Source: Kineococcus radiotolerans SRS30216 = ATCC BAA-149 (GTDB lineage Bacteria; Actinomycetota; Actinomycetes; Actinomycetales; Kineococcaceae). Taken from it: a stretch of 32,000 nucleotides of DNA. A program made the position numbers and the translations under genes. The notes under the pieces were generated by a model. It saw only the letters and a list, made by a program, of their open reading frames with translations, had not been told where the DNA came from and searched no databases. How positions within the stretch are numbered: position 1 is the first letter of the stretch; each line of letters begins with the position of its first letter. Shown here one piece after another: positions 373 through 11,674 of this stretch. The stretch is taken from contig NC_009664.2 of the NCBI RefSeq assembly GCF_000017305.1, positions 3,540,001 through 3,572,000 of the forward strand, read 5' to 3'.

Positions 373-2169
373 TCACCGCAGCCAGCGGTGCAGGCGCCCG
401 GCCTGCAGGGACTTCCAGGTCTCCTCGAAGTCGGCTTCGCTGGCGGCGGCGTGCGCCTCCTCCTGGGCGAAGAGCCGCCCGTAGGCGAAGGCCACCTCCG
501 GGCGCGCCGAGGCGGCCAGGTCGCGCAGCTGCTGACGGGTGACCACGGAGTCCTGGTGCTCGCCCAGCACCTCCTGGGCGTCGGTGACGGCGCGGGCGAA
601 CCGCGTCGCGTCCTTGCCGAAGACCACCGCCACCGCCTCCGCGGCGTAGCGCACCTGCTTGGCGGCCTTGCGGGCCTCGTGCAGCAGCTCGTCGCGCTCG
701 GCGCCGGCCTCGGCGCGGTAGGCGTGCTCGACCAGCCCGGACAGCGTCTCGAAGGTCTTCGCCACCCGGCGGGGCAGGACCTTGTCGGCCCGGCGCGCGC
801 CGCGGGAGGTGAACCGCGGGCGTTCCACGAGGTCCTGGAGGTCGTCGAGCAGGGACTGGTACCGCTCGGAGTCCAGCTCGGCCAGCACCCGGTCGTGCGC
901 GGTCCGGTAGGCCCGGCCCAGCTGGTCCGCGACGAGCGCGGGCACGGCCCCGGCGGCCGCGGGGTCGGCCGGCTGGAGCTCGGGGGCCACGTCGAGGGTG
1001 GCGACCGAGCGCACCAGGCGGTCCCGCAGCACCTCGGCGTCGCGGGCGGCGCCCAGTTCGGCGGCCAGCCAGCGCAGCTCGTCGCGCAGCGGCTTCGTGG
1101 AGCGGGCCAGCAGCGGCTGGAAGGTCCGCAGCGCGCTGCGCAGGCGGCGGGTCGCCACCCGCATCTTGTGGATGCTGTCGGGTTCGTCGCTGCGCACCCG
1201 CGGGTCCTGGTCCAGGACCTGCTGGACCTGCTCGGCCAGGTGCACCACGAGGACGTCACCGGCCCGGGACCGGGCGGTGAGCTGCTTGCGCCGGGGACCG
1301 GCGTGCTCGAGGACGCGGGGAGCGGACTCCGCGCGGGTCGGCGCGGTCTGCTCCTCCACCGCCGGCTCGGACGGCGCGGGGGCCTCGGCGGAGTCGGGCG
1401 CTCCGGCGGGCTCGGTCGTCTCGGTGGGCTCGGTGGGCTCGGTGGGCTCGGTGGGCTCGGTGGGCTCGGTCGTCTCAGCGGGCTCGGCGGCTCCAGTCGT
1501 CTCCGCGGGCTCGGGCGCCCCGGTGCCGCCGGAGAGGACCCGGCTCAGCTTGGAGCTGCTGCTCGAGACCCGCAGCCCCGCGGCCCGCAGCCCGGCGTCC
1601 ACGGCCTCGAAGACCGCGCGGTCGCCCTCGACGATCTCCAGCTCCACCTCGCGCCAGGTCTGCACGGCCCCGGCCGCCTCGCCCGCGCCGTCCAGCGGGA
1701 GCAGGCGGCGGGCCTCGACGACGTCGTCGGCGAGCTCCAGCAGGCGGGTGCCGGTGGCGTCGAGCACCGAGCGGACGCTGCGGTGGGTGTTCACCCGGGC
1801 CACCGGGACGAGCGGGCTCCCGCCGGTGAGCTCCTCGACCAGCCGCCGCAGCGCGGCGGGCACGGTCCGCACGGCGCGCCCCAGCGGGAGGCGCTGCTCG
1901 ACGCGGGCCCCGGCGTCGCCGGGGGTCTTCAGGTGCCAGCCGGCGTCGGTGCCGCCGGTGCGCCGGCGCAGGGTGGTGCGGGCCGCGCTGAGGCGCAGGT
2001 CAACGGTGTCGAAGTACGTCGCCTCGAGGTCGAACTCCCCGAGGTCGCCCTCCCGGTAACCCCGCTCGGCGGCCTCGGGCAGAGCCCGCAGCAGCGCGGG
2101 CAGGGCGGGCAGGTCGAGACCGGGTTCCAGCTCGTACTTGACTTCGATTTCCTCGTGCGTGCTGACCAT
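373..2169 (-). CDS. CYTH and CHAD domain-containing protein (triphosphate tunnel metalloenzyme fused to a CHAD domain)
   Basis: 598-aa ORF. The N-terminus carries the CYTH ExExK signature (EEIEVKYEL). The C-terminal half has CHAD-type basic helices (IHKMRVATRRLRSALRTF, LHEARKAAKQVRYAAE). A Pro/Thr/Glu-rich linker lies between the two domains. Confidence 0.85.
   Translation of the reverse strand: MVSTHEEIEVKYELEPGLDLPALPALLRALPEAAERGYREGDLGEFDLEATYFDTVDLRLSAARTTLRRRTGGTDAGWHLKTPGDAGARVEQRLPLGRAVRTVPAALRRLVEELTGGSPLVPVARVNTHRSVRSVLDATGTRLLELADDVVEARRLLPLDGAGEAAGAVQTWREVELEIVEGDRAVFEAVDAGLRAAGLRVSSSSSKLSRVLSGGTGAPEPAETTGAAEPAETTEPTEPTEPTEPTEPTETTEPAGAPDSAEAPAPSEPAVEEQTAPTRAESAPRVLEHAGPRRKQLTARSRAGDVLVVHLAEQVQQVLDQDPRVRSDEPDSIHKMRVATRRLRSALRTFQPLLARSTKPLRDELRWLAAELGAARDAEVLRDRLVRSVATLDVAPELQPADPAAAGAVPALVADQLGRAYRTAHDRVLAELDSERYQSLLDDLQDLVERPRFTSRGARRADKVLPRRVAKTFETLSGLVEHAYRAEAGAERDELLHEARKAAKQVRYAAEAVAVVFGKDATRFARAVTDAQEVLGEHQDSVVTRQQLRDLAASARPEVAFAYGRLFAQEEAHAAASEADFEETWKSLQAGRLHRWLR
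1411..1473. repeat. In-frame 9-bp tandem repeat: ctcggtggg x5 perfect (1420-1464), flanked by ctcggtcgt variants
   Basis: Read directly from the sequence. It encodes the (TEP)n linker ...AETTEPTEPTEPTEPTEPTETTEP... of the CYTH-CHAD protein on the minus strand. Confidence 0.9.
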
Positions 2170-2289: not shown

Positions 2290-3240
2290 TCAGCGCGCCG
2301 GGGCCGGTGCGGCCGCCCCGGGCTCGAACGCGGAGAGGTCGATCGCGCCGCGCCCGCGGGACAGCGACGGGAACCGCTGGAGCAGGAACTCCCGGCTGCG
2401 CAGCGCGGCCTCGCGGTGCACGGGGTCGTGGTCGTACAGCTCCACGCTGATCCACCCCCCGTAGCCCGCGTCGAGGACCGCGCCCACGGCGTCGAAGTCC
2501 ACGTCCCCGTCGCCGGGGACGAGGTGGGCGTGCACCCGGTCGGCGATGTCCTCGACCTGCAGGTGCCGGGTGAGGGGCAGGTGGTGTTCCAGCGAACCCA
2601 GCGCGTCGTCCTCGACGACGACGCAGTGCCCGAGGTCCTGGCTCAGCCACAGGTCCGGGCTGCCCGTCCGGGTCAGCAGGGCCGCGACCTGCGCGTTGGT
2701 GGCGCAGTGGAAGTCCGGTTCCGGTTCGACGCCCAGCACCGTGCTGCCGCGGGGGAGCCCGGCGGCGTCCAGGGTTTCGTGCAGCGTGTCCAGCAGGACG
2801 GCGACGGCCTCGTCCAGCCAGGCGTCGGCCCGGGCGGGGGGCACGTCGGCGCGCCGCCGGCCGGTGGAGAACACCACGAGGGGAACTCCGGCGAGGACCC
2901 CGAGGCGGACGCTGCGGCGCAGCAGGTCCAGCCGGCGGGCCCGTTCGGCGGGGTCGGGGTCGACGAGGGCCGGTTCGAAGGCGTTCCCGCTCAGCAGGTG
3001 CGGATCGCCGGTGGCGAGGCTGCAGGCGGTGAGCCCGGTCGCGTCGAGCACCGCGCGCAACCGGTCCGCGTCCGCCGCGGAGAACGCCCACGGGTCGACG
3101 TGCTGGGCGTTGAGGGAGAGTTCGATGCCGTCGTAGCCGCAGTCGGCGAGCGTGCGGACGGCCTCGTCCAGGCTGACCGACCGCAGGCCGTTCGCGTTGT
3201 ACGCCAGTCGCGTCGCCGGCGTCGGGGAGGTCTTGGGCAC
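2290..3240 (-). CDS. Sugar phosphate isomerase/epimerase (xylose isomerase-like TIM barrel family)
   Basis: Sequence features: ...LAYNANGLRSVSLDEAVRTLADCGYDGIELS..., VEPEPDFH..., HLQVEDI...HLVPGDGDVDFDAVGAVLDAGYGGWISVELY. These match the AP endonuclease 2 / IolE-IolI type TIM barrel pattern. I chose the GTG start at 3240 because of the GAGGAG RBS 5 nt upstream; the ORF-track start at 3384 would add an Arg/Pro-rich extension. Confidence 0.8.
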   Translation of the reverse strand: MPKTSPTPATRLAYNANGLRSVSLDEAVRTLADCGYDGIELSLNAQHVDPWAFSAADADRLRAVLDATGLTACSLATGDPHLLSGNAFEPALVDPDPAERARRLDLLRRSVRLGVLAGVPLVVFSTGRRRADVPPARADAWLDEAVAVLLDTLHETLDAAGLPRGSTVLGVEPEPDFHCATNAQVAALLTRTGSPDLWLSQDLGHCVVVEDDALGSLEHHLPLTRHLQVEDIADRVHAHLVPGDGDVDFDAVGAVLDAGYGGWISVELYDHDPVHREAALRSREFLLQRFPSLSRGRGAIDLSAFEPGAAAPAPAR

Positions 3241-3471
3241 GGGTGCTCCTCGTGTTCGCGGTGCGGCGCAGGCAGGGGGACCGACCGCGAGGCGGTTGTT
3301 CCACCGGGCGCCTCCAGCAGGGCACCACGTTTCCGCCTGCCGCGCACGGGGTACGAACCGATCACGGGGAGTGAGAAGCGTCACGGGGGTTCGATGTGCG
3401 GACCCGGGAACCCGGTGGCACGGTGACGGCGTGTTCCTCCTCCTCCCGGGCGCTGCCGCTCGAGGTCACCG

Positions 3472-4464
3472 GTGACCGGGCCCCGAAACTCCGACGTCCC
3501 CGCGAACCCCTCCCCGGGGGGGAACTCCGGCCCCGACGAACCGGTGGTCGCCCCCTCGACGCTGCAGCTCCTGCGCGAACTGGCCGATGTGAAGCGCTTG
3601 CGCGACGCCCGCGGAACCGGCTCGCTGGCCGACCGGGCCTTCACCCGGTCCTGGCGGACCCTCCTGCGGGACTGGTCCCCGGAACGGGTGCGCGACCTCG
3701 CGCTGCGCGAGGTCTCCCACGCCCTGGTGGCGGCTCGCCTCGCCGGGGTCGACGCCGCGGTCCTCGCCACCGCCGGGTTGACCCGCGACGAGCGGCTGGA
3801 CGTCCTGCGCCGCGCCTTCGACGCCGTCACGGCGACCGCCGAGGGGGGTTTCGGCGACCTCGCCGACCTGCGCGCGGCCCTGGACCCCGAACCCCTCGAC
3901 GAGGAGCTCCTCCCGCCCGCCCCGGCCTTCGTGGACGCCCTCGTCCGCCAGCCCCGGGCCGGGGCCACCCACCCGGTGCTGCCGCGGGTGGTCGTCGAAC
4001 CCCCCGAGAGCCACGGGGACCACTGCTTCGTCACCGCCGCGTACTCCGCCCTCGTCGCTCCCCGCTTCGGCGTGGACCGCGGCGAGGCGTTCCTCGTCGC
4101 CCTGGCCCACCACCTGCCCAACGGCGACCTGCCCGACGCCGGGTTCGGCGGGGAGGTGCTGCTGGGGGAGCACTACCTCCCCGTGCTGGCCGCCCTGGAG
4201 GAACGTTCCCTGCGCCAGCTCCCCCTCGGCCTGGCCGCGCACCTGCGGGACCTGCTGCCCCGGCGGGAGACCACGGACACCGCGGTCGGCCGGGTGTTCA
4301 ACACCGCCGACGTGCTGGACCGCGTGCTGCAGGTCCACCACCACGCCCGCGCCGCGGGTTTCACCGCGGCCCAGGCCCTCGACGACCTCGACATCGTCCA
4401 CCCCGGCACCGTCCAGCGGTTCCAGCTCGGCGTGCTCGCCGGTGCCGGCATCCCGGTGCGCTGA
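3472..4464 (+). CDS. Hypothetical protein with a YfbR-like HD-domain pattern (variant metal motif HH instead of HD)
   Basis: 330-aa ORF with GC3-rich codons and a GAGG 6 nt upstream of the GTG. The central region ESHGDHCFVTAAYSALVA...LVALAHHLPNGDLPD aligns by eye to the H...HD...GD pattern of 5'-deoxynucleotidase-type HD phosphohydrolases. Confidence 0.55.
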   Translation: MTGPRNSDVPANPSPGGNSGPDEPVVAPSTLQLLRELADVKRLRDARGTGSLADRAFTRSWRTLLRDWSPERVRDLALREVSHALVAARLAGVDAAVLATAGLTRDERLDVLRRAFDAVTATAEGGFGDLADLRAALDPEPLDEELLPPAPAFVDALVRQPRAGATHPVLPRVVVEPPESHGDHCFVTAAYSALVAPRFGVDRGEAFLVALAHHLPNGDLPDAGFGGEVLLGEHYLPVLAALEERSLRQLPLGLAAHLRDLLPRRETTDTAVGRVFNTADVLDRVLQVHHHARAAGFTAAQALDDLDIVHPGTVQRFQLGVLAGAGIPVR

Positions 4465-4484
4465 AACCCGACCGAGGAGAACCC

Positions 4485-5546
4485 GTGACCACTCCCGACG
4501 ACCAGACCGACCCCCGCACCGGCTGGGTCATCGCCGGCGCGGGCTGGGTCGCCCGCGACCACATGGCCCCCGCCCTGGCCGCCTCCGCCACCAGCCGCGT
4601 CGTCGCGGTCGTCGACCGGGACCTCGCCGCCGCCCGCGCGCTGGCGGCCCGGTTCCCCGGCGCCGTCGCGCACGACGACCCGGCCACCGCGTTCGCCACC
4701 CCCGGCGCGCAGGTGGCCTACGTCGCCACGCCCAACCACGCCCACCGCGAGGTCGCGGTCGCCGCGGCGGAGGCCGGCCTGGCGGTCCTGTGCGAGAAAC
4801 CCCTCGCCGCGGACCTGGACGACGCCGCGGCCCTGGTCGAGGGGTGCGAACGCGCCGGGGTCGTGGCCGCCACGGCCTTCGACCAGCGGTTCCACCCCGC
4901 CCACGAGGTGGTGGCGGAGATGGTGGCCCGCGGTGACCTGGGGACGGTCACCGCCGTCCGCATCGTCTACGCCTGCTGGCTGCCGCCCGGCTGGGCCCCG
5001 CCGGGCAGCACGACCGGCGACAACTGGCGCGTCGACCCCGTCCGGGCCGGCGGCGGCGCCTACGTCGACCTGGCCCCGCACGGGCTGGACCTCGTCGGGA
5101 CGCTGCTCGGCGAGGACGTCGTCACCGCCACCACCCACCTGCAGCACCGCGTGCACGACTACGCCGTCGACGACGGGTCCGTCCTCGTCGGCAGCACGTC
5201 CTCCGGTGTGCTGGTGACGATCTCGAACTCCTTCAACACCGTGGAGACCTTGCCGCGCCGGCGGCTGGAGATCGTCGGGACCGCGGGGCAGCTCGTCGCC
5301 ACCGATACCATGGGGCAGGACGCCGGGGGGCGCGTGGAGTTCCTCGACGCCACCACCGGGGAGTCCCGCGACGTCGAGTTCGACCGCGAGACCTCCCCGT
5401 TCACGGGGGAGCTGCGCGCCCTCGAGGCCGCGGTGACCGGCGGCGGGGACTGGCGGTTCCCGATGTCGCGCGACCTGCACCTGCTGCGCCTGCTGCACGG
5501 CGCGCTCACCGTCCAGGAGACCCGACCCGCGGAGGCACGACGATGA
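4485..5546 (+). CDS. Gfo/Idh/MocA family NAD(P)-dependent oxidoreductase
   Basis: GTG at 4485 preceded by GAGGAG. The N-terminal Rossmann segment is WVIAGAGWVARDHMAPAL. The family motif AVLCEKPLA and the C-terminal alpha/beta domain are present. Confidence 0.85.
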   Translation: MTTPDDQTDPRTGWVIAGAGWVARDHMAPALAASATSRVVAVVDRDLAAARALAARFPGAVAHDDPATAFATPGAQVAYVATPNHAHREVAVAAAEAGLAVLCEKPLAADLDDAAALVEGCERAGVVAATAFDQRFHPAHEVVAEMVARGDLGTVTAVRIVYACWLPPGWAPPGSTTGDNWRVDPVRAGGGAYVDLAPHGLDLVGTLLGEDVVTATTHLQHRVHDYAVDDGSVLVGSTSSGVLVTISNSFNTVETLPRRRLEIVGTAGQLVATDTMGQDAGGRVEFLDATTGESRDVEFDRETSPFTGELRALEAAVTGGGDWRFPMSRDLHLLRLLHGALTVQETRPAEARR

Positions 5547-6478
5547 CCGGTCCCGACGACTCCCACGCCCTGCGCGGGGTCCGCGCCGGGGAACTCGCCC
5601 CGCTGCCCACCCGGGCCCACCGCACGCACCGGGCGTACTCCTGCACGAACTGCGGGCACTGGCAGCGGTGGTTCGCCACCACCCCGCCGCCCTCGTGCCC
5701 GGTGTGCTCCGACGTGCGCAACGAACTGCCCGTCGAGGGGTTCGCGTTCCTGCGCGAGACGGAGGTCGACGCCCTCGTCACGACCTCGTGGCGCGAGGCG
5801 GTCCCGGGGGTGACGGAGTTCTGGTGCGACCCCGTCGTGGGCCTGGGCTCCCACGGCTGGGTGCTGGAGACCGCCGACGGGCTGCTCGGCTTCGAGGCCG
5901 CCCCGTGGTACTCCGCCGACGCGCTGGCCGAGCTGCGCCGGCGCGGCGGGTTGCGCGTGCTCGCCTCCAGCCACGTCCACGGCTTCGGCGGCCTGTGGCA
6001 GTTGCAGGACGAGCTCGACCCGCCCGTCGTGTCGGTCGGCGTCCACGACCTCACCTGGACCAAGGCGTTCCGCGTCACCTGGCCCGCCGACGACGAGACC
6101 GAGCTCGCCCCGGGCATCACCCTGCACCGCACCGGGGGCCACTTCCCCGGGCACAGCGTCCTGCACGACGCCGGCCGCGGCCTGCTCTTCTGCGGGGACT
6201 CCCTCAAGATCGACCTCGACGAGCACGGGAACCCCGCCGCGCTCAGCGCCCACAAGGCGTTCCACGCCCAGATCCCGCTCTCGCGCGCGGAACTGCGCAG
6301 CGTGCGCGAGATCCTCGGCGCGCTGGGGTTCGACACCGTCTTCAGCCCGTTCGAGTTCGCCCGCGGCGTCACCACCCGCCACGTCGTCGCCCTGGTCGAC
6401 CACATGCTCACCCACCCCCCGTCGGCGGCCCCGGTGCCCTTCGACCTCCTCGACGAGAACGTGAGGGTCTTCGCGTGA
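5543..6478 (+). CDS. Zinc-ribbon (CxxC...CxxC) protein with a degenerate metallo-beta-lactamase fold
   Basis: The ATG overlaps the upstream stop (ATGA), with a GGAGG RBS. The N-terminus has CTNCGH...CPVCSD. MBL-like elements are SSHVHGFGG (in place of HxHxDH), TGGHFPGHSV and FCGDSL. Confidence 0.7.
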   Translation: MTGPDDSHALRGVRAGELAPLPTRAHRTHRAYSCTNCGHWQRWFATTPPPSCPVCSDVRNELPVEGFAFLRETEVDALVTTSWREAVPGVTEFWCDPVVGLGSHGWVLETADGLLGFEAAPWYSADALAELRRRGGLRVLASSHVHGFGGLWQLQDELDPPVVSVGVHDLTWTKAFRVTWPADDETELAPGITLHRTGGHFPGHSVLHDAGRGLLFCGDSLKIDLDEHGNPAALSAHKAFHAQIPLSRAELRSVREILGALGFDTVFSPFEFARGVTTRHVVALVDHMLTHPPSAAPVPFDLLDENVRVFA

Positions 6479-8046
6479 ACCCACCCGCCCTGCGGTCCCT
6501 GACCGTCGACCACCCCGTGCGGGAGGACGGCGACCACCGCGCCACCGAGCGCTTCCGCGACGTCCTCGGCGAGCGCGACCGGTTCCAGTTCCCCACCTAC
6601 CGCCTCGACACCGTGGGCGTCCCGTCGTGGTGGACGATCGCGGCGACGGGCGCCGCGGGGGCGGCGGCCATCGGCCACGGCTACGGCGCCACCGACGCCG
6701 ACGCGCGCCGCTCCAGCTGGGGCGAGTCCGCGGAACTGGGGCTGCTGCGGCGCCGGGTCTCCACCCTGGAGCACCGGCGCGGGACCCGCGCCGAGCTGGT
6801 CGCGGAGTTCGGCGCCGACGCCGTCCTCGACCCGCCGTCGGTGTGCCTGGACGCGGGATCCCCCTACCACCCCGGTAGCCCGCTGAACTGGCTGCCGCTG
6901 CAGCGCTGGGGGACCGGGGAACGGGTCTGGGCCCCCGCCGACGTCGTCCTGCGCGACGCCGACGAACTGCCCGAGGGGTTCGTCGACGACCTCCCGCGCC
7001 TGGTGACCCGGCACGGCAACGGGCTCGGCGCCGGCGACAGCCTGGAACGGGCCGTGGCCCACGGCATCGGGGAACTCCTCCAGCGCGACGGCAACGGCAC
7101 CCGGTTCCGCGCCCTGGACACCGGGATCGTCCTCGACCTCGGGACCGACGACGAGCTCGTCGCCGATCCCGTCACCCGCGACGCGCTGGCCCGGTTGCGG
7201 GCGCAGGGCGTGCGCGTCGTCCCCAAGCTCGCCAACGACTGGTGGGGGATCGTCAACGTCACCGTGGTCGGGGCCGACGACGACCCGCTGCAGCCGGTCA
7301 TGGTCACCGCGGCCGGCGAGGCTGCCCACCCCGACCGCGAGGTCGCCCTGCGCAAGGCCGTCCTGGAGTTCGCCGCCGCGCGCTCGCGCAAGGCCTTCAC
7401 CCACGGCGACCTCGACGCCGTCCGCCGCATCAGCCCGCCCGGGTACGTGGAGCGCTACGCCGCCGACCCCTCGACCCAGGAGCAGCGCGCGCTGCGCGGG
7501 ATGCTGGGGTGGCTGGAGCGCGACGCGGCCCAGCTGCGGGAACTGCTGGAACCGGTGGTGCTCGCCGAGCGCAGCCGCCGCCGGTTCGACACCCTGCCCA
7601 CCTGGAACGCCCCCGAGGGCGCCGACGAGCAGCGGGCCCTGGCCGCGCACCTGGTCGGCCTGCTGCGCGAGCGCGGGTTCGACGTCCTGGTGCTGGACTG
7701 CTCCGCCGACGACGTCGCCGTCGCCCGCGTCGTCGTCCCCGGCCTGGAGGTCGAGATCGTCAGCTACGGGCGCATCGGTGAACGGGGCCTGGCCGACCTG
7801 CTGGAACGCGGCGACGGGCGCACCGGCCTGCACGGCATCGCCGGCCTCGGCGTCCCCGGGCGCGACGGCGTCCCCGCGGGGGCCGAGCCCGTCCACCTCA
7901 CCGACGCCGCGCGGGAACGGTTCGGCGCCCCCGCCTGGCTGGACCGGGCCGCGCTGGACCGGGTCCTGGGCGACCTGTACCCGCTGTACCGCGAACCGGC
8001 GCTGCACGCGGCCGCGGTGGCCCGCGCGGAGGGGTGGACGGCGTGA
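6475..8046 (+). CDS. YcaO-like family protein (ATP-dependent amide-activating enzyme family)
   Basis: The GTG overlaps the upstream stop (GTGA). Motifs seen: GHGYGATDADARRSSWGESAE, GNGLGAGDSLERAVAHGIGELLQRDG, AAGEAAHPDREVALRKAVLEFAAAR and VARVVVPGLEVE, all typical of the YcaO domain. Confidence 0.85.
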   Translation: MNPPALRSLTVDHPVREDGDHRATERFRDVLGERDRFQFPTYRLDTVGVPSWWTIAATGAAGAAAIGHGYGATDADARRSSWGESAELGLLRRRVSTLEHRRGTRAELVAEFGADAVLDPPSVCLDAGSPYHPGSPLNWLPLQRWGTGERVWAPADVVLRDADELPEGFVDDLPRLVTRHGNGLGAGDSLERAVAHGIGELLQRDGNGTRFRALDTGIVLDLGTDDELVADPVTRDALARLRAQGVRVVPKLANDWWGIVNVTVVGADDDPLQPVMVTAAGEAAHPDREVALRKAVLEFAAARSRKAFTHGDLDAVRRISPPGYVERYAADPSTQEQRALRGMLGWLERDAAQLRELLEPVVLAERSRRRFDTLPTWNAPEGADEQRALAAHLVGLLRERGFDVLVLDCSADDVAVARVVVPGLEVEIVSYGRIGERGLADLLERGDGRTGLHGIAGLGVPGRDGVPAGAEPVHLTDAARERFGAPAWLDRAALDRVLGDLYPLYREPALHAAAVARAEGWTA

Positions 8047-9350
8047 GGATCTGCTTCGTCAGCCGTCGCTACTGGCCCGCGGTGTCGGGCATGAGCGTCT
8101 ACGCGGAGAAGCTGCTCGAGGGGCTCGTGGCCCGCGGCCACGACGTCGTGCTGGTCTCGCAGTTCCGCGGCGACCCCACCGGCAGCGCCGTCTACGGCGG
8201 CGGGCCGCCGCCGGCGGACCGGGTCCCGGCGGGGGTGCGCGCGGTGGGCCTGGAGGCGCTGGGGGAGCAGCGCGTCGCCGACGGCTCACCCGCCGACTTC
8301 GACGCCGACATCGCCGCGATGCGCGCCACCGTCGAGCGCCTGCACGCCGAGGAACCCTTCGACCTCCTGCACGCCCAGTACGCCTGGCCCACCGGGATGG
8401 CGGTGCTGGAGGCCTCCGCCGCGCTGGGGCTGCCCTCGGTGGTCAGCGTCCAGGGCGGCGACGGGCACTGGGTCGGGCTGTGCTGCCCGGCGCACTCCCT
8501 GGGCATCCGGACCGTCCTGGACCGCGCGGGGGCGGTGCTCATCGGCTCGCGGACCTTCGCCGACGAGGTCGTCGAGCACCACGGCACCGACCCCGCCCGC
8601 TTCGACCTCGTGGGCGGGGCCACCGACACCGGCGCGTTCCGCCCCGCCGACGACGCCGCCGCGGGGTCGCTGCCGGGCGCGGGCCCGGTGACGCTGCTGT
8701 TCCACGGCCGGGTGGACCGCCGCAAGGGGGTCCTGGACCTCCTCCACGCTCTGGCCACCCTGCGCGCGGAGGAGCGCGACGTGCGGCTGCTGGTCTCCGG
8801 GATCGGGCCCGACGTCACCGCCGTCGCCGACCTCGTCGCGGAGCTGGGGCTGGGCGGGGCCGTCGAGCAGCGCGGCTACGTCCCCTACCCCGACGCCCCG
8901 GCCGTCTACCGCGACGGGCACGTGTTCGTCTCGCCCACCCAGTCCGAGGGCTTCTCCAACACCATCCTCGAGGCGATGGCCGCGGGCCTGCCCGTGGTGA
9001 CGACCCGCACCGTCGGGGTCGTCGACTGCGTGCGCGACGGCGAGAACGGCCTGCTGCACGAGGTGGGCGACGTCGCGGGCCTCGTCGCGGCGCTGCGCCG
9101 GCTGCTCGACGAGCCGGCGCTGGGCCCGGAGCTGGCCCGGCGGGCGCTCACCGAGGTGCGCGACGTCTGGTCCTGGCCGGCGCTCACGGCGCGCGTCGAG
9201 GCGGTCTACGAGCGGGTGGCCGGGAGCGCCCCGGACACCTCGTGGACCGGGCTCGAACCGGCGCGGCGCCCGACCAGCGCGGGGCGGGGGATCGAACCCG
9301 CCACCGCCGACGCCGACTGCCGGTTCCTCCGCACCCCCCACCTGCTGTGA
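8043..9350 (+). CDS. Glycosyltransferase family 4 (GT-B fold, retaining)
   Basis: The N-terminus VRICFVSRRYWPAVSGMSVYAEKL is typical of GT4. The E-x7-E motif SEGFSNTILEAMAAGLPVV is present. The GTG at 8043 forms a GTGA overlap with the YcaO stop and has GGAGGGG upstream; an alternative GTG lies at 8034. Confidence 0.85.
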   Translation: MRICFVSRRYWPAVSGMSVYAEKLLEGLVARGHDVVLVSQFRGDPTGSAVYGGGPPPADRVPAGVRAVGLEALGEQRVADGSPADFDADIAAMRATVERLHAEEPFDLLHAQYAWPTGMAVLEASAALGLPSVVSVQGGDGHWVGLCCPAHSLGIRTVLDRAGAVLIGSRTFADEVVEHHGTDPARFDLVGGATDTGAFRPADDAAAGSLPGAGPVTLLFHGRVDRRKGVLDLLHALATLRAEERDVRLLVSGIGPDVTAVADLVAELGLGGAVEQRGYVPYPDAPAVYRDGHVFVSPTQSEGFSNTILEAMAAGLPVVTTRTVGVVDCVRDGENGLLHEVGDVAGLVAALRRLLDEPALGPELARRALTEVRDVWSWPALTARVEAVYERVAGSAPDTSWTGLEPARRPTSAGRGIEPATADADCRFLRTPHLL

Positions 9351-10108
9351 GCCCCGCCGAGACCGCCGGGCGCGCGGTGCGGGTCGTGGCGGTGTCCCCG
9401 CACCTGGACGACGCCGCGTTCTCCGCCGGGGGGCTGCTGGCGGGGCTGGCCGCGGCGGGGGCGGAGGTCCACGTCGTGACGGTGTTCACCGCCACCGTGC
9501 CCGGCCCCACGGGCTTCGCCCTGGCCTGCCAGACCGACAAGGGGCTGCCCCCCGAGGTGGACTACATGGCGCTGCGCCGCGCCGAGGACGCCGCCGCCAC
9601 CGCGGCGCTGGGGGTGCGGGGCCGGCACCTGCCCCTGGCCGAGGCCCCGCACCGCGGGTACGGCAGCCCCGCGGCGCTCTTCGGCCCCGTCGCGCCCGGC
9701 GACGAGGACGGCCCCGACGTCGTGCGCGCCGCCCTGGCCGAGGTGCTGGACGGGTTCCCCGGCCCGGTGGACCTGCTCCTGGGGCCGCAGGCCCTCGGCG
9801 ACCACGTCGACCACCGCCACGTCCGCGCCGCGGTGGACGCCCTCACCCACGACCGCGGCCTGCCGCTGGCGCGCTGGGCCGACACCCCCTACGTGCTGCG
9901 TCCGGGCGCCGACGCCCCCGCCGGGTCCCCCCGGTACCCGACGGGGGAGGAGCTCGACGCCAAGGTCGAGGCCTGCGCCGCCTACGCGACGCAGCTGGGC
10001 TTCCAGTTCGACGGGCCGGCCGCGATGACCCGCGCCCTGCGGGCGCTGCCGGAGACCTTCGACCCGCCGCTGCCGGTGCGGGCGGCGGGCCCGCACGCCG
10101 GGGACTGA
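9347..10108 (+). CDS. PIG-L/LmbE family N-acetylglucosaminyl deacetylase
   Basis: GTGA overlap with the GT4 stop. Motifs VVAVSPHLDDAAFSAGG and GDHVDHRHV match the PIG-L zinc-binding signature. Confidence 0.85.
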   Translation: MSPAETAGRAVRVVAVSPHLDDAAFSAGGLLAGLAAAGAEVHVVTVFTATVPGPTGFALACQTDKGLPPEVDYMALRRAEDAAATAALGVRGRHLPLAEAPHRGYGSPAALFGPVAPGDEDGPDVVRAALAEVLDGFPGPVDLLLGPQALGDHVDHRHVRAAVDALTHDRGLPLARWADTPYVLRPGADAPAGSPRYPTGEELDAKVEACAAYATQLGFQFDGPAAMTRALRALPETFDPPLPVRAAGPHAGD

Positions 10109-10116
10109 CCCCGCTC

Positions 10117-10146
10117 GATCGTCCCGCGCCGCGGCGCGGGACGATC
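10117..10146. terminator. Perfect 30-nt palindrome (13-bp stem, CGCG loop) after the PIG-L gene; candidate terminator or operator
   Basis: gatcgtcccgcgc-cgcg-gcgcgggacgatc, read directly from the sequence. It starts 9 nt after the stop at 10108 and ends 53 nt before the next start codon. Confidence 0.5.
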
Positions 10147-10198
10147 CCCCCGCACGGTCGCCGGGCGGCGGCGCCGGCGATCGACAGGAGGCCGGCCC

Positions 10199-11674
10199 GT
10201 GGACGGACCCACCGAGGCGTTGCTGCTGCACCGGGTCCGGCGGGCGGGACGGGTCTGCGACGTCCTGCTCGCCGGGGGCCGCGTCGTCGCCGTCGGCGAC
10301 GACCTGCGCGCGGCCGCGACCGGGCTGGACCCGCTGGGGGCGGTGGAGGTCGTCGACGCCGGTGGGGCGGTCCTGCTGCCCGGGCTGGTCGACTCCCACG
10401 TCCACCTCACGCAGTGGGCCGCGGCCCGCCGCCGCGTCGACGTCCTGGCCGCGACGTCGGCCGCCGAGGCCGCGGACCTGCTGGCCCGGCACGCCGGGCC
10501 GGGCACCGACCTCGTGCTGGGGCACGGGTACCGGGACGCGCTGTGGAGCGGGCCCGCCCACCGGGACGTGCTGGACGTGCGGTTCCCCGACCGGCCCGTC
10601 GTCGTGGTGAGCGCGGACCTGCACGCCGTCTGGGTGAACTCCCCCGCCGCCGCCCGCTTCGGCGTCGCCGACCCCACCGGGGTGCTGCGGGAGGGACCCG
10701 CGATGGAACTCATCGCCGCCGCCGGCGACGTGGGGGAGGCCACGCTGGACCGCTGGGTCGCGGAGGCGACGACGGTCGCCGCCGCCCGCGGGGTCACCGG
10801 CGTGGTGGACCTGGAGTTCGCCCCGATCGGCACCTGGAGCCACCGGGCCCGCCCCGACGTGCGGATCGCCGCCGGCGTCTGGCCGCAGTGGCTGGAGGAG
10901 GCGGTCGCGGCGGGGCTGCGCACCGGCGACGCCGTCCCCGGCGCCCCGGACCGGGTGCGGGTGGGCCCGGTGAAGTTCGTCGTCGACGGGTCGCTGGGCA
11001 CCCGGACGGCGTTCTGCCACGACGAGTACCCCTCCGGCGGCCACGGCGTGCTGCGGATCCCCCTCGCGGAGCTGGAACCCGGACTGCGCCGCGCCACCTC
11101 CCACGGGCTGACCGCCGCCGTCCACGCCATCGGCGACGACGCCGTCCGCGTCGCCCTCGACGGCTTCGAGGCCACCGGCGCGCGCGGCAGCGTGGAGCAC
11201 GCCCAGCAGGTCCACCCCGAGGACCTGCCCCGCTTCGCCCGCCTCGGCGTCCTCGCCAGCGTCCAGCCGCGCCACGCCGTCGACGACCGCGACGCCGTGG
11301 CGCGGCACTGGCCCCGCGGGGCCGAGCGGGCCTACCCCTACGCCGCGCTGCGGGCGGCCGGCGCGGAGCTGCGGCTGGGCTCCGACGCCCCCGTCGCGCC
11401 GCTGGACCCGTGGGACGCCCTGGCCAGCGCGGTGCACCGCAGCCTCGACGAGCGCGAACCCTGGCGACCCGACCAGCACCTGCCCCTCGACGTCGCGCTC
11501 GCGGCGGGCTGCGGGGGCCGGCGCGGCGTGCACGTGGGCGACGTCGCCGACCTGACCCTCGTCGCGGTCGACCCCGCGCGCGCGTTCGCGGACGGGGGAG
11601 CGGACGCCCTGCGCCGCACCGAGGTCCTCGCCACCGTCCTCGGCGGGGAGTTCACCCACCGGGCCGGGGTCTGA
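10199..11674 (+). CDS. Amidohydrolase family protein (YtcJ-like, Amidohydro_3 type metal-dependent hydrolase)
   Basis: CAGGAGG RBS upstream of the GTG. Motifs LLPGLVDSHVHL, VHAIGDDAVRVALDGFE and GSVEHAQ are present. Confidence 0.85.
   Translation: MDGPTEALLLHRVRRAGRVCDVLLAGGRVVAVGDDLRAAATGLDPLGAVEVVDAGGAVLLPGLVDSHVHLTQWAAARRRVDVLAATSAAEAADLLARHAGPGTDLVLGHGYRDALWSGPAHRDVLDVRFPDRPVVVVSADLHAVWVNSPAAARFGVADPTGVLREGPAMELIAAAGDVGEATLDRWVAEATTVAAARGVTGVVDLEFAPIGTWSHRARPDVRIAAGVWPQWLEEAVAAGLRTGDAVPGAPDRVRVGPVKFVVDGSLGTRTAFCHDEYPSGGHGVLRIPLAELEPGLRRATSHGLTAAVHAIGDDAVRVALDGFEATGARGSVEHAQQVHPEDLPRFARLGVLASVQPRHAVDDRDAVARHWPRGAERAYPYAALRAAGAELRLGSDAPVAPLDPWDALASAVHRSLDEREPWRPDQHLPLDVALAAGCGGRRGVHVGDVADLTLVAVDPARAFADGGADALRRTEVLATVLGGEFTHRAGV

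Follow-up and report, generated by a model that had tools for sequence, protein, structure and literature searches.

A stretch of 32,000 nucleotides of the Kineococcus radiotolerans SRS30216 chromosome (NC_009664.2, positions 3,540,001 to 3,572,000; hereafter the window, in whose own numbering all positions are given) carries six plus-strand genes, among them a gene for a stand-alone YcaO protein. These six genes and a divergent gene for a TIM-barrel enzyme represent, in K. radiotolerans, a conserved biosynthetic operon of 7–9 genes. The identities of the genes, the intact catalytic motifs, the co-inheritance of the genes, the fusions among them and the absence of both the usual YcaO partners and a precursor peptide are matters of observation. 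What is new is a YcaO with a new partner and a probably non-peptide context, within a new cyclitol–aminosugar pathway. The features of the operon are as follows.

2290–3240, minus strand: TIM-barrel gene, divergent from the six-gene operon
3241–3471: divergent intergenic region of 231 nt between the TIM-barrel and HD genes
3472–4464, plus strand: HD gene, open frame, first gene of the six-gene operon
4485–5546, plus strand: Gfo/Idh/MocA (GFO) gene, open frame
5543–6478, plus strand: zinc-ribbon and metallo-beta-lactamase (MBL) gene, open frame
6475–8046, plus strand: YcaO gene, open frame
8043–9350, plus strand: glycosyltransferase family 4 (GT4) gene, open frame
9318–9347, plus strand: GT4 C-terminal tail, C426-R-F-L-R-T-P-H-L-L435, following a hypervariable linker
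9347–10108, plus strand: PIG-L gene, open frame, last gene of the operon
10117–10146, plus strand: 13-bp perfect G+C hairpin, 9 nt past the PIG-L stop codon, from RNA folding

The original prediction, made from the letters of the stretch alone, had proposed a six-gene plus-strand operon with these limits and junctions, and the open reading frames (ORFs), the codon-position GC content and the Pfam matches bear it out. Pfam and NCBIfam searches also agree with the proposed domain identities (HD, GFO, zinc-ribbon/MBL, YcaO, GT4 and PIG-L). Since the window is 77% G+C, long ORFs are found in all six frames; the codon-position GC content, however, singles out the six genes unambiguously, with GC values of 0.95–0.99 at third positions and 0.50–0.57 at second positions. 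The TIM-barrel gene and the amidohydrolase gene downstream (10199–11674) have a gene-like codon-position composition, as in the operon genes. The HD and GFO genes are separated by a 20-nt spacer with GGAGAA, and the subsequent junctions are 4-nt overlaps: ATGA at 5543, and GTGA at 6475, 8043 and 9347. These overlaps by themselves prove little, as 4-base overlaps are common in high-GC operons. It is the synteny across phyla that makes the six-gene unit more than chance.

Conservation of the operon across genomes

A profile of the YcaO protein and 26 relatives led to at least 576 places in representative genomes, and 80 loci were kept. Neighbours were counted in those 63 loci whose flanks reach 5 kb or more upstream and 4.5 kb or more downstream of YcaO. 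They were found in two ways, by tblastn with each window protein and by independent gene-family clustering, and both agree. The HD, GFO, GT4 and PIG-L genes are each found beside YcaO in 61 of the 63 loci, the TIM-barrel gene in 60 and the MBL gene in 50, being missing from the remaining 13. One co-inherited unit had been proposed for the six genes, and the neighbour counts of 50–61 of 63 support it. The TIM-barrel gene, suggested earlier as a possible member, does belong, and lies inside the operon in most lineages. A reciprocal search starting from GT4 homologues retrieved the same cluster, including YcaO, in Motilibacter and two further genomes; the homologues therefore cluster together when approached from either side. 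In later searches, the cluster also turned up in Corallococcus, Myxococcus, Melittangium, Competibacteraceae, Gemmataceae and Acuticoccus. The unit spans Actinomycetota, Alpha- and Gammaproteobacteria, Myxococcota and Planctomycetota, and 74% of the junctions within the clusters of related loci are overlapping or abutting.

The canonical order, usual outside Kineococcus and Kocuria, is myo-inositol-1-phosphate synthase (MIPS) – HD – methyltransferase – GFO – MBL – YcaO – TIM – GT4 – PIG-L, with every gene on the same strand. The first gene of the operon belongs to the MIPS family in 51 of the 80 genome loci, and likewise in five extra loci: Motilibacter (L081), L082, Acuticoccus (L084), Corallococcus (L086) and Competibacteraceae (L087). 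Its product has both Pfam myo-inositol-1-phosphate synthase domains (E 1e-60 and 1e-32), and falls far below the cut-off of the mycothiol Ino1 equivalog TIGR03450 (33 bits against 638). The gene following HD encodes a class I S-adenosylmethionine-dependent methyltransferase. The presence of MIPS and the methyltransferase at the start of the canonical cluster indicates that the pathway is cyclitol-based; it is built on a cyclitol and an aminosugar. In K. radiotolerans, the cluster has neither MIPS nor the methyltransferase, and the TIM-barrel gene points the other way; the methyltransferase is retained in some other Kineococcus species.

Several lineages depart from this order. In two planctomycete-type loci (L077:4775-6004; L083:3107-4330), a cyclase of the dehydroquinate synthase (DHQS) superfamily occupies the MIPS position and overlaps HD, and the TIM-barrel gene is missing. 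The Tundrisphaera DHQS-like gene, which passes the NCBIfam model PRK06203, was at first treated as a chance neighbour; that explanation was dropped, and the arrangement kept as a real variant, since the second locus has such a gene in the same coupled position. DHQS, EEVS, DDGS and DOIS all match this cyclase, and hence no subtype can be called. A subset of Acetobacteraceae has no MBL gene, and one Pseudonocardiaceae contig retains only MIPS-MBL-YcaO-GalE. In two loci (L059:9971-11485 and L073:2546-4063), YcaO stands without its usual neighbours, next to a carbohydrate-type ABC importer (SBP_bac_1 and two permeases), a histidine phosphatase, a Zn-dependent alcohol dehydrogenase and a polysaccharide deacetylase. 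In Corallococcus coralloides DSM 2259 (L086:1880-5758), a MATE exporter and two extra GT4 genes are located directly upstream of the cluster, which hints that the myxobacterial product is secreted and further glycosylated. The theme shared by the variants is a carbocycle-forming enzyme together with sugar-nucleotide chemistry. A GT2/beta-helix gene downstream of the cluster in Acetobacteraceae turned out to be OpgH/MdoH, and was counted as a neighbour only.

Conserved non-coding stretches were seen about 100–250 nt upstream of MIPS in Acetobacteraceae (L019, L023, L028, L029 and others); they are lineage-restricted, have no Rfam match and may represent a regulatory site. A riboswitch or leader upstream of the operon was sought in three loci with no Rfam match, and shared k-mers were lineage-restricted. 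Many of the carriers come from lichen metagenomes, as Acetobacteraceae metagenome-assembled genomes (MAGs). Kineococcus, Kocuria, Skermanella and Tundrisphaera are known from desert, biocrust or tundra habitats, or as radiation-resistant.

The YcaO clade and its ribbon-MBL partner

The YcaO protein is 100% identical to the NCBI entry from K. radiotolerans. It matches Pfam PF02624 over model positions 2–325 of 325 (E 3.6e-48; 165 bits, the cut-off being 25.7). Its AlphaFold2 model has a mean predicted local distance difference test (pLDDT) value of 92 and a predicted TM-score (pTM) of 0.93, and a Foldseek search with this model gave a probability of 1.00 to 6peu, 4v1v, 6cib, 7u58, 4bs9, 4q85 and 6gri. 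By both sequence and fold, the nearest solved YcaO proteins are the methanogen thioamide enzymes of M. jannaschii and M. kandleri (17–20% identity), followed by LynD, MusD, TruD, E. coli YcaO and McbD. The residues of the nucleotide/Mg motifs E84, E87, E200, R204, D205 and E298 are kept and match up with the M. jannaschii enzyme in the alignment. At its C terminus, the window YcaO is extended by about 90 amino acids, with an invariant LYPLYREPxxH motif at the end.

An exhaustive profile search over 1.84 billion representatives, with the clade defined at E ≤ 1e-30, placed about 198 of 5108 YcaO-like representatives in the clade. Judged by its sequence, it is a distinct clade that lies below every curated subfamily cut-off. 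Against TIGR03604 (azoline, SagD-type; cut-off 219), the window YcaO scores 61 bits and the orthologue from locus L028 scores 91; against TIGR03266 (TfuA-associated thioamide; cut-off 365), the values are 79 and 47 bits, respectively. The L028 protein thus ranks the two models in the reverse order of the window YcaO, which means that the clade has no consistent subfamily affinity. The E. coli-type model NF040716 (RimO/S12 accessory) gives 26 bits over a partial stretch, with a cut-off of 700. Databases name members of the clade 'S12 methylthiotransferase accessory factor' or 'McrA-glycine thioamidation protein', and the model scores do not back these names.

The usual partners are also absent. 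No TfuA was found in the Pfam matches of 27 of the 29 window genes or among the conserved cluster families, the variable flanks of the other loci not having been scanned exhaustively. The conserved neighbour families include no E1-like/Ocin-ThiF or RRE-like partner. A precursor peptide was looked for by grouping 648 short ORFs in and around the clusters; none is conserved across genera, and the only families obtained are lineage-restricted and probably reflect conserved non-coding DNA. The signs of a bottromycin- or streptamidine-type amidine system are lacking as well, there being no conserved precursor and the amidohydrolase of 10199–11674 being found in 0 of 63 loci. The view that this YcaO has a context unlike that of any characterised system therefore holds, with all curated cut-offs missed and the usual partners absent. 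A role in anti-phage defence was considered and rejected: no PADLOC defence-system model matches any of the seven proteins, and the Pfam 'GT4-conflict' match is one of six overlapping GT4 models.

The place of TfuA or of the E1-like protein in known YcaO systems is held here by the ribbon-MBL protein. It consists of an N-terminal rubredoxin-like 4-Cys ribbon, whose cysteines C34/C37/C52/C55 are invariant, followed by a Pfam Lactamase_B domain with the metal motif H144-x-H146-G-x-G in place of HxHxDH. Among solved proteins, it has only a weak similarity (E ~1e-3) to the thioesterases PqsE and glyoxalase II. Pfam and BLAST analysis of the long proteins from the representative search revealed MBL–YcaO fusions in no fewer than five separate 50%-identity clusters. 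Fused ORFs are present in the genome loci (L046:2021-4264 and L085:2708-5074) and among the proteins P0264, P0268, P0274 and P0284; the P0268 cluster contains seven independent full-length copies of 829–830 amino acids. The recurrence of these fusions identifies the ribbon-MBL as the physical partner of YcaO.

A PIG-L–YcaO fusion of 778 amino acids was also found (L084:10001-12337, Acuticoccus sp., on a 4.0-Mb contig at 25x coverage). It is a singleton and derives from a gene order with YcaO after PIG-L, an order seen in a Competibacteraceae MAG (L087:9276-11563) with two separate genes that overlap by 4 nt. Two cases of duplicated YcaO genes were noticed. The low-coverage metagenome contig L085 has two paralogues of the clade within one and the same cluster, one fused to MBL (2708–5074) and one after PIG-L (7150–8676), and two adjacent copies seem to be present in a Myxococcaceae MAG, to judge by the consecutive tags EOO71_09430/09435 (P0433, P0441).

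Enzymes of cyclitol and sugar chemistry

The HD protein is a borderline match to Pfam HD_3 (22.8 bits against 22.5), and 17 of 20 family members match this model. Weak PDB profile matches to 2cqz, 1xx7 and HDDC2 align H184, H213-H214 and D280 to metal ligands. The dyad is His-His (H213-H214) in every orthologue instead of His-Asp, and H181, H184 and H310 are also invariant. Taken together, the matches make a YfbR/HDDC2-type phosphohydrolase the probable function. The ligand set is unusually His-rich for a phosphohydrolase of the YfbR type; an oxygenase of the MIOX/PhnZ type, with its His-rich ligands, was considered and rejected, only HD_3/YfbR-type phosphohydrolase families being matched.

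GFO has the N- and C-terminal Pfam domains of its family (E 1.7e-23 and 5.8e-23) and invariant GxGxxA and E104-K105-P106 motifs. Its best NCBIfam match is IolG, and it is predicted to be an NAD(P)-dependent sugar or cyclitol dehydrogenase. The TIM-barrel enzyme belongs to Pfam AP_endonuc_2 (E 5e-31) and is xylose-isomerase-like; UlaE, L-ribulose 3-epimerase and IolE are its nearest solved relatives (~1e-12), and metal ligands of the E172/D202/H205/E267 type are invariant. It is predicted to be of the ketose/inosose epimerase or dehydratase type. None of the equivalog models of inositol catabolism reaches its cut-off: IolG gives 102 bits (cut-off 355), IolE 36 (290) and IolO 42 (300). The genes are located together with a synthase, a glycosyltransferase and a methyltransferase, which speaks for biosynthesis and not for inositol catabolism.

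The PIG-L protein (Pfam PIG-L, E 5e-14) has invariant PHLDD and HxDH zinc motifs and is a putative Zn-dependent de-N-acetylase of the PIG-L/LmbE family. Its nearest solved relatives are the GlcNAc-pseudoaglycone deacetylases Orf2*/Dbv21 and 6iiy (1e-31 to 1e-29), while MshB is matched at 5e-4.

GT4 (Pfam E 1e-35) belongs to a retaining family with the GT-B fold, and its EX7E motif (E302...E310) is invariant. In a Foldseek search with its AlphaFold2 model (pLDDT 89.5), the best match is MshA (3c4q), followed by sucrose-phosphate synthase and BshA. The tail of the form C-R-F-[R/L]-x-x-P-H-L-L ends all 73 of the 73 locus GT4 proteins, behind a linker of about 8 to about 80 residues with no sequence conservation. 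GT4 homologues retrieved independently carry the same tail, with the rare variants CPY[LR], CHFR and AAHLL; CPYL is found in the Kocuria type, about 74% identical to the window GT4, and CPYR in P0161/L088. C147, C148, H151 and C329 are invariant as well. In the monomer model, the tail has a pLDDT of 75–82, and confidence is lowest (66) in the invariant C147-C148-x-x-H151 loop. On one reading of the model, the tail might be a metal-mediated intramolecular latch with this loop; on another, it would be a docking peptide, or even a substrate, for YcaO.

A contact between the tail and YcaO was also sought by covariation. In the YcaO clade, rare variants of the QRD motif are QRN (Kocuria-type) and QRH, and the Kocuria proteins combine a tail R-to-P replacement with YcaO D205N; nowhere else in the seven proteins does a position that is otherwise invariant lose a negative charge. 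The pairing was not replicated in two independent lineages, L088 having a CPYR tail with QRD and L089 having QRH with a CRFR tail, and the inferred contact was dropped.

Comparison with known systems

The closest solved YcaO is the methanogen McrA-glycine thioamidation enzyme (MJ1094, M. kandleri; E 2.5e-21, TM-score 0.78 on the target). Both it and the window YcaO are stand-alone, with no E1-like domain, and the accessory protein is absent in some lineages of each. The window clade differs in having neither TfuA nor an McrA-like substrate, and in possessing the 90-amino-acid extension, Q203 and an MBL-fold partner.

The remaining enzymes recall mycothiol biosynthesis by MshA, MshB and Ino1 (and bacillithiol biosynthesis by BshA and BshB). 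The families are the same, and so is the logic, from inositol phosphate through GlcNAc transfer by a retaining GT4 to deacetylation by an LmbE/PIG-L enzyme. However, the equivalog cut-offs of MshA, MshB and Ino1 are all missed, and the cluster contains no MshC or MshD. It has GFO, the TIM-barrel enzyme, the methyltransferase, MBL and YcaO in addition, and its range includes Proteobacteria, Myxococcota and Planctomycetota.

The paromamine route of the aminoglycosides employs a cyclitol synthase, the GT4 enzymes BtrM/NeoM and the PIG-L-type deacetylases BtrD/NeoL. The cluster resembles such pseudodisaccharide routes in its combination of a carbocycle-forming enzyme, GT4, PIG-L and Gfo/Idh/MocA-type dehydrogenases, a likeness drawn from general knowledge and not from sequence comparison. 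It uses MIPS and not 2-deoxy-scyllo-inosose synthase (the DHQS-like variant excepted), and it has YcaO. The conserved set includes no aminotransferase, and thus no aminocyclitol is expected, unlike in the aminoglycosides.

Orf2* and Dbv21 of teicoplanin and A40926, to which PIG-L is related over nearly its full length, unmask a glucosamine amine for later N-modification. Their substrate is a glycopeptide aglycone, and an acyltransferase acts after them, whereas no non-ribosomal peptide synthetase (NRPS), glycopeptide gene or acyltransferase is present here. In its logic only, and as general knowledge, the mycosporine-like amino acid pathway is also comparable: a cyclitol-forming enzyme and a methyltransferase are combined with an ATP-dependent O-activator that could couple an amine to a vinylogous acid. 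The DHQS-like cyclase heading the two planctomycete-type operons recalls the sugar-phosphate cyclase of the mycosporines; on the other hand, the cluster has no ATP-grasp or NRPS-like enzymes and MIPS is its usual cyclase. Among YcaO systems, the daptide DapY, bottromycin, streptamidine and ItfB enzymes use ATP to activate an amide, which an amine then attacks, the logic proposed here (PMC12338566, PMC8442711, PMC11002830). These enzymes use adjacent ribosomal precursor peptides, and none is conserved in the loci studied. As far as the sequences allow one to judge, the cluster joins early steps like those of mycothiol and aminoglycosides to a YcaO-type activation, and is a member of neither of these groups, nor of the characterised YcaO systems.

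Proposed pathway and alternative explanations

Tentatively, and at slightly less than an even chance, we suggest that the operon makes a small polar metabolite, a modified cyclitol–aminosugar pseudodisaccharide, and that YcaO and MBL perform an ATP-dependent carbonyl activation in its synthesis. The cluster's own synthase would supply an inositol phosphate, for which Kineococcus would draw on its housekeeping enzyme, and the phosphate would be removed by the HD phosphohydrolase. GFO would then oxidise the cyclitol, and the TIM-barrel enzyme would epimerise or dehydrate it beside the new ketone, with methylation of the product in most lineages. An N-acetylhexosamine would be attached by the MshA-like GT4, and its acetyl group removed by PIG-L to give a free amine. 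Finally, the YcaO/ribbon-MBL complex would use ATP to phosphorylate a poorly electrophilic carbonyl oxygen of the same molecule, that of an amide or of a vinylogous amide or acid. A condensation would follow, most likely an attack by the amine exposed by PIG-L, resulting in a cyclic amidine- or enaminone-type linkage. We infer the order of the steps, the sugar donor and acceptor, the substrate and nucleophile of YcaO, and the product. Of the earlier interpretation, the glucosamine-type small molecule stands as the most economical reading, whereas the YcaO chemistry attached to it keeps its conditional form.

The resemblance of GFO and the TIM-barrel enzyme to IolG and to IolE/epimerase pairs, which act on cyclitols and keto-sugars, is consistent with this scheme, as are the intact zinc site of PIG-L and its apparent likeness to deacetylases of GlcNAc glycosides. 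MshA, BshA and sucrose-phosphate synthase, the structural matches of the GT4 model, all use small soluble acceptors, which suggests the same for GT4. In daptide imidazoline formation, an amine installed by the pathway enzymes is a documented YcaO nucleophile (PMC12338566).

A number of observations weigh against the proposed scheme. In the YcaO clade, the second Glu of the ExxERD motif, at the position of a Mg ligand, is replaced by an invariant Gln (Q203; 270 of about 276 members examined), where the M. jannaschii enzyme has Glu. To our knowledge, all characterised YcaO proteins act on a peptide or a protein, so that the prior favours a peptide substrate. PIG-L strips the only obvious amide, the N-acetyl group, and hence no amide is evident for YcaO and its electrophile is hypothetical; either the oxidised cyclitol would have to provide it as a vinylogous amide or acid, or an unseen step would have to form an amide. 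Only the donor-binding C-terminal domain of GT4 aligns to MshA, its N-terminal acceptor domain having no sequence match, and GT4 scores 92 bits against the MshA equivalog TIGR03449 (cut-off 462). PIG-L, likewise, scores 20 bits against the MshB equivalog TIGR03445 (cut-off 224). The HD gene is kept in the two loci with the DHQS-like cyclase replacing MIPS, which does not fit a simple inositol-phosphate phosphatase. Lastly, the invariant C-terminal peptide of GT4 is an unexplained candidate for a peptide ligand.

The first alternative leaves the sugar in place and changes the target: YcaO would modify the N-acetyl amide of a GlcNAc-cyclitol to an acetamidino, thioacetamido or 2-methyl-oxazoline group. 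MBL would play a TfuA-like part in supplying the nucleophile, for instance through hydrolysis of a thioester or thiocarboxylate, and PIG-L would serve a branch, recycling or a later step. This appears unlikely, although the N-acetyl group is the only amide obviously supplied by the chemistry of the cluster, and the nearest solved YcaO proteins are the thioamide-forming methanogen enzymes. MBL weakly resembles PqsE/glyoxalase II thioester hydrolases and is fused to YcaO in several lineages. TfuA is dispensable in some methanogens, and the absence of MBL from 13 of the 63 loci parallels this. Against it, the strictly conserved deacetylase (61 of 63 loci) would destroy the substrate; moreover, no conserved gene for a sulfur or ammonia donor is present in the loci, the L028 orthologue scores higher with TIGR03604 than with TIGR03266, and the MBL similarity (E ~1e-3) is weak.

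We regard it as similarly doubtful that YcaO acts on a peptide or protein, for which the GT4 tail would be the best candidate (by Cys cyclodehydration, backbone thioamidation or amidination), or else a protein encoded elsewhere and subsequently glycosylated. This possibility was already raised in the original prediction, and the invariant tail keeps it open. The tail contains a Cys and is invariant in all phyla sampled, behind a hypervariable linker, and PIG-L is far closer to the glycopeptide-GlcNAc deacetylases Orf2*/Dbv21 than to MshB. Known YcaO substrates are, in addition, all peptidic (PMC8442711 and general knowledge). A stranger variant would have YcaO install a backbone modification in the GT4 tail, giving a protein-derived functional group needed by the pathway. 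Several findings speak against a peptide substrate. The confidence of the tail in the monomer model (pLDDT 75–82) suggests packing onto GT4 itself, and an invariant 'core' with a variable linker is the reverse of the usual pattern of peptides synthesised ribosomally and modified post-translationally (RiPPs). The covariation of tail and YcaO in Kocuria was not replicated in the two independent lineages, and no GT4 is found near YcaO in L057, L059 and L073. The strict link to the cyclitol genes would also be left unexplained.

Returning to small molecules, the product might be a mycothiol- or bacillithiol-like thiol, or another N-acylated glucosamine–cyclitol, with YcaO as the ATP-dependent ligase in the role of MshC/BshC, acting on the amine freed by PIG-L. 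The set of GT4, PIG-L and methyltransferase does parallel BshA/BshB/NmbA and MshA/MshB, MshA and BshA are the best structural matches of GT4 along with sucrose-phosphate synthase, and the cluster encodes no ligase of the MshC/BshC type. This explanation is nevertheless improbable. From general knowledge, no YcaO is known that activates a carboxylate or forms amides, and actinomycetes already have the canonical mycothiol pathway; the GFO and TIM-barrel steps have no place in thiol biosynthesis. The remaining explanation, a functionally unrelated YcaO inside an ordinary sugar or cell-wall operon, has only generic annotations in its favour ('glycosyltransferase involved in cell wall biosynthesis', 'S12 methylthiotransferase accessory factor'), and such chance adjacency is extremely improbable, being effectively refuted by the synteny and fusions: co-localisation in 60–61 of 63 loci over five phyla/classes, overlapping junctions, reciprocal retrieval from the GT4 side and the 26 bits of the E. 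coli-type YcaO model against its cut-off of 700.

Boundaries of the operon and neighbouring genes

The intergenic region 3241–3471 presumably holds the promoters of both the TIM-barrel gene and the six-gene operon. A consensus sigma-70 scan of this region found no promoter, as expected for DNA of 77% GC. At the other end, folding of 10100–10200 gave the hairpin with the stem 10117–10129/10134–10146 (z −2.15). A terminator scan did not call this hairpin, since it lacks a T-run; it is the probable end of the operon, ahead of the unrelated amidohydrolase gene (10199–11674). The latter had been proposed as part of the same system, but this was ruled out, as the gene accompanies YcaO in 0 of the 63 loci and is preceded by the hairpin that follows the PIG-L stop codon.

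The rest of the window consists of housekeeping genes, including those for a CYTH-CHAD protein, holA, lepA, a radical-SAM protein, hrcA and dnaJ. The gene for the CYTH-CHAD protein (373–2169, minus strand) flanks the cluster in Kineococcus and in Motilibacter (L081:1-2472), where it adjoins polyphosphate kinase. This is probably mere local synteny.

Significance

YcaO enzymes are textbook ATP-driven activators of peptide backbone amides, producing azolines, thioamides and amidines. A survey published in 2021 on the stand-alone YcaO proteins of Actinobacteria stated that no evidence existed for non-RiPP functions in this group (PMC8442711). No description of the present cluster was found in the open full-text literature, subscription-only papers lying outside the search, and the cluster is provisionally considered undescribed. 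We estimate an even chance that this is the first YcaO clade with a carbohydrate or cyclitol small-molecule substrate and a new ribbon-MBL partner, making an undescribed heterocyclic, amidine- or thioamide-type pseudodisaccharide that occurs widely among soil, biocrust and lichen-associated bacteria from five or more phyla/classes.

For the annotation of the family, the finding means that the name 'S12 methylthiotransferase accessory factor', carried by many proteins of the clade, is unsupported by the scores. For its enzymology, a compact operon of 7–9 genes makes the question of whether YcaO chemistry extends to small molecules directly testable. The range of the clade, from Kineococcus and Streptomyces to Acetobacteraceae, myxobacteria and planctomycetes, points to a widespread undescribed metabolite, and since many of the carriers come from dry, irradiated or lichen habitats, this metabolite may have a protective or signalling role.

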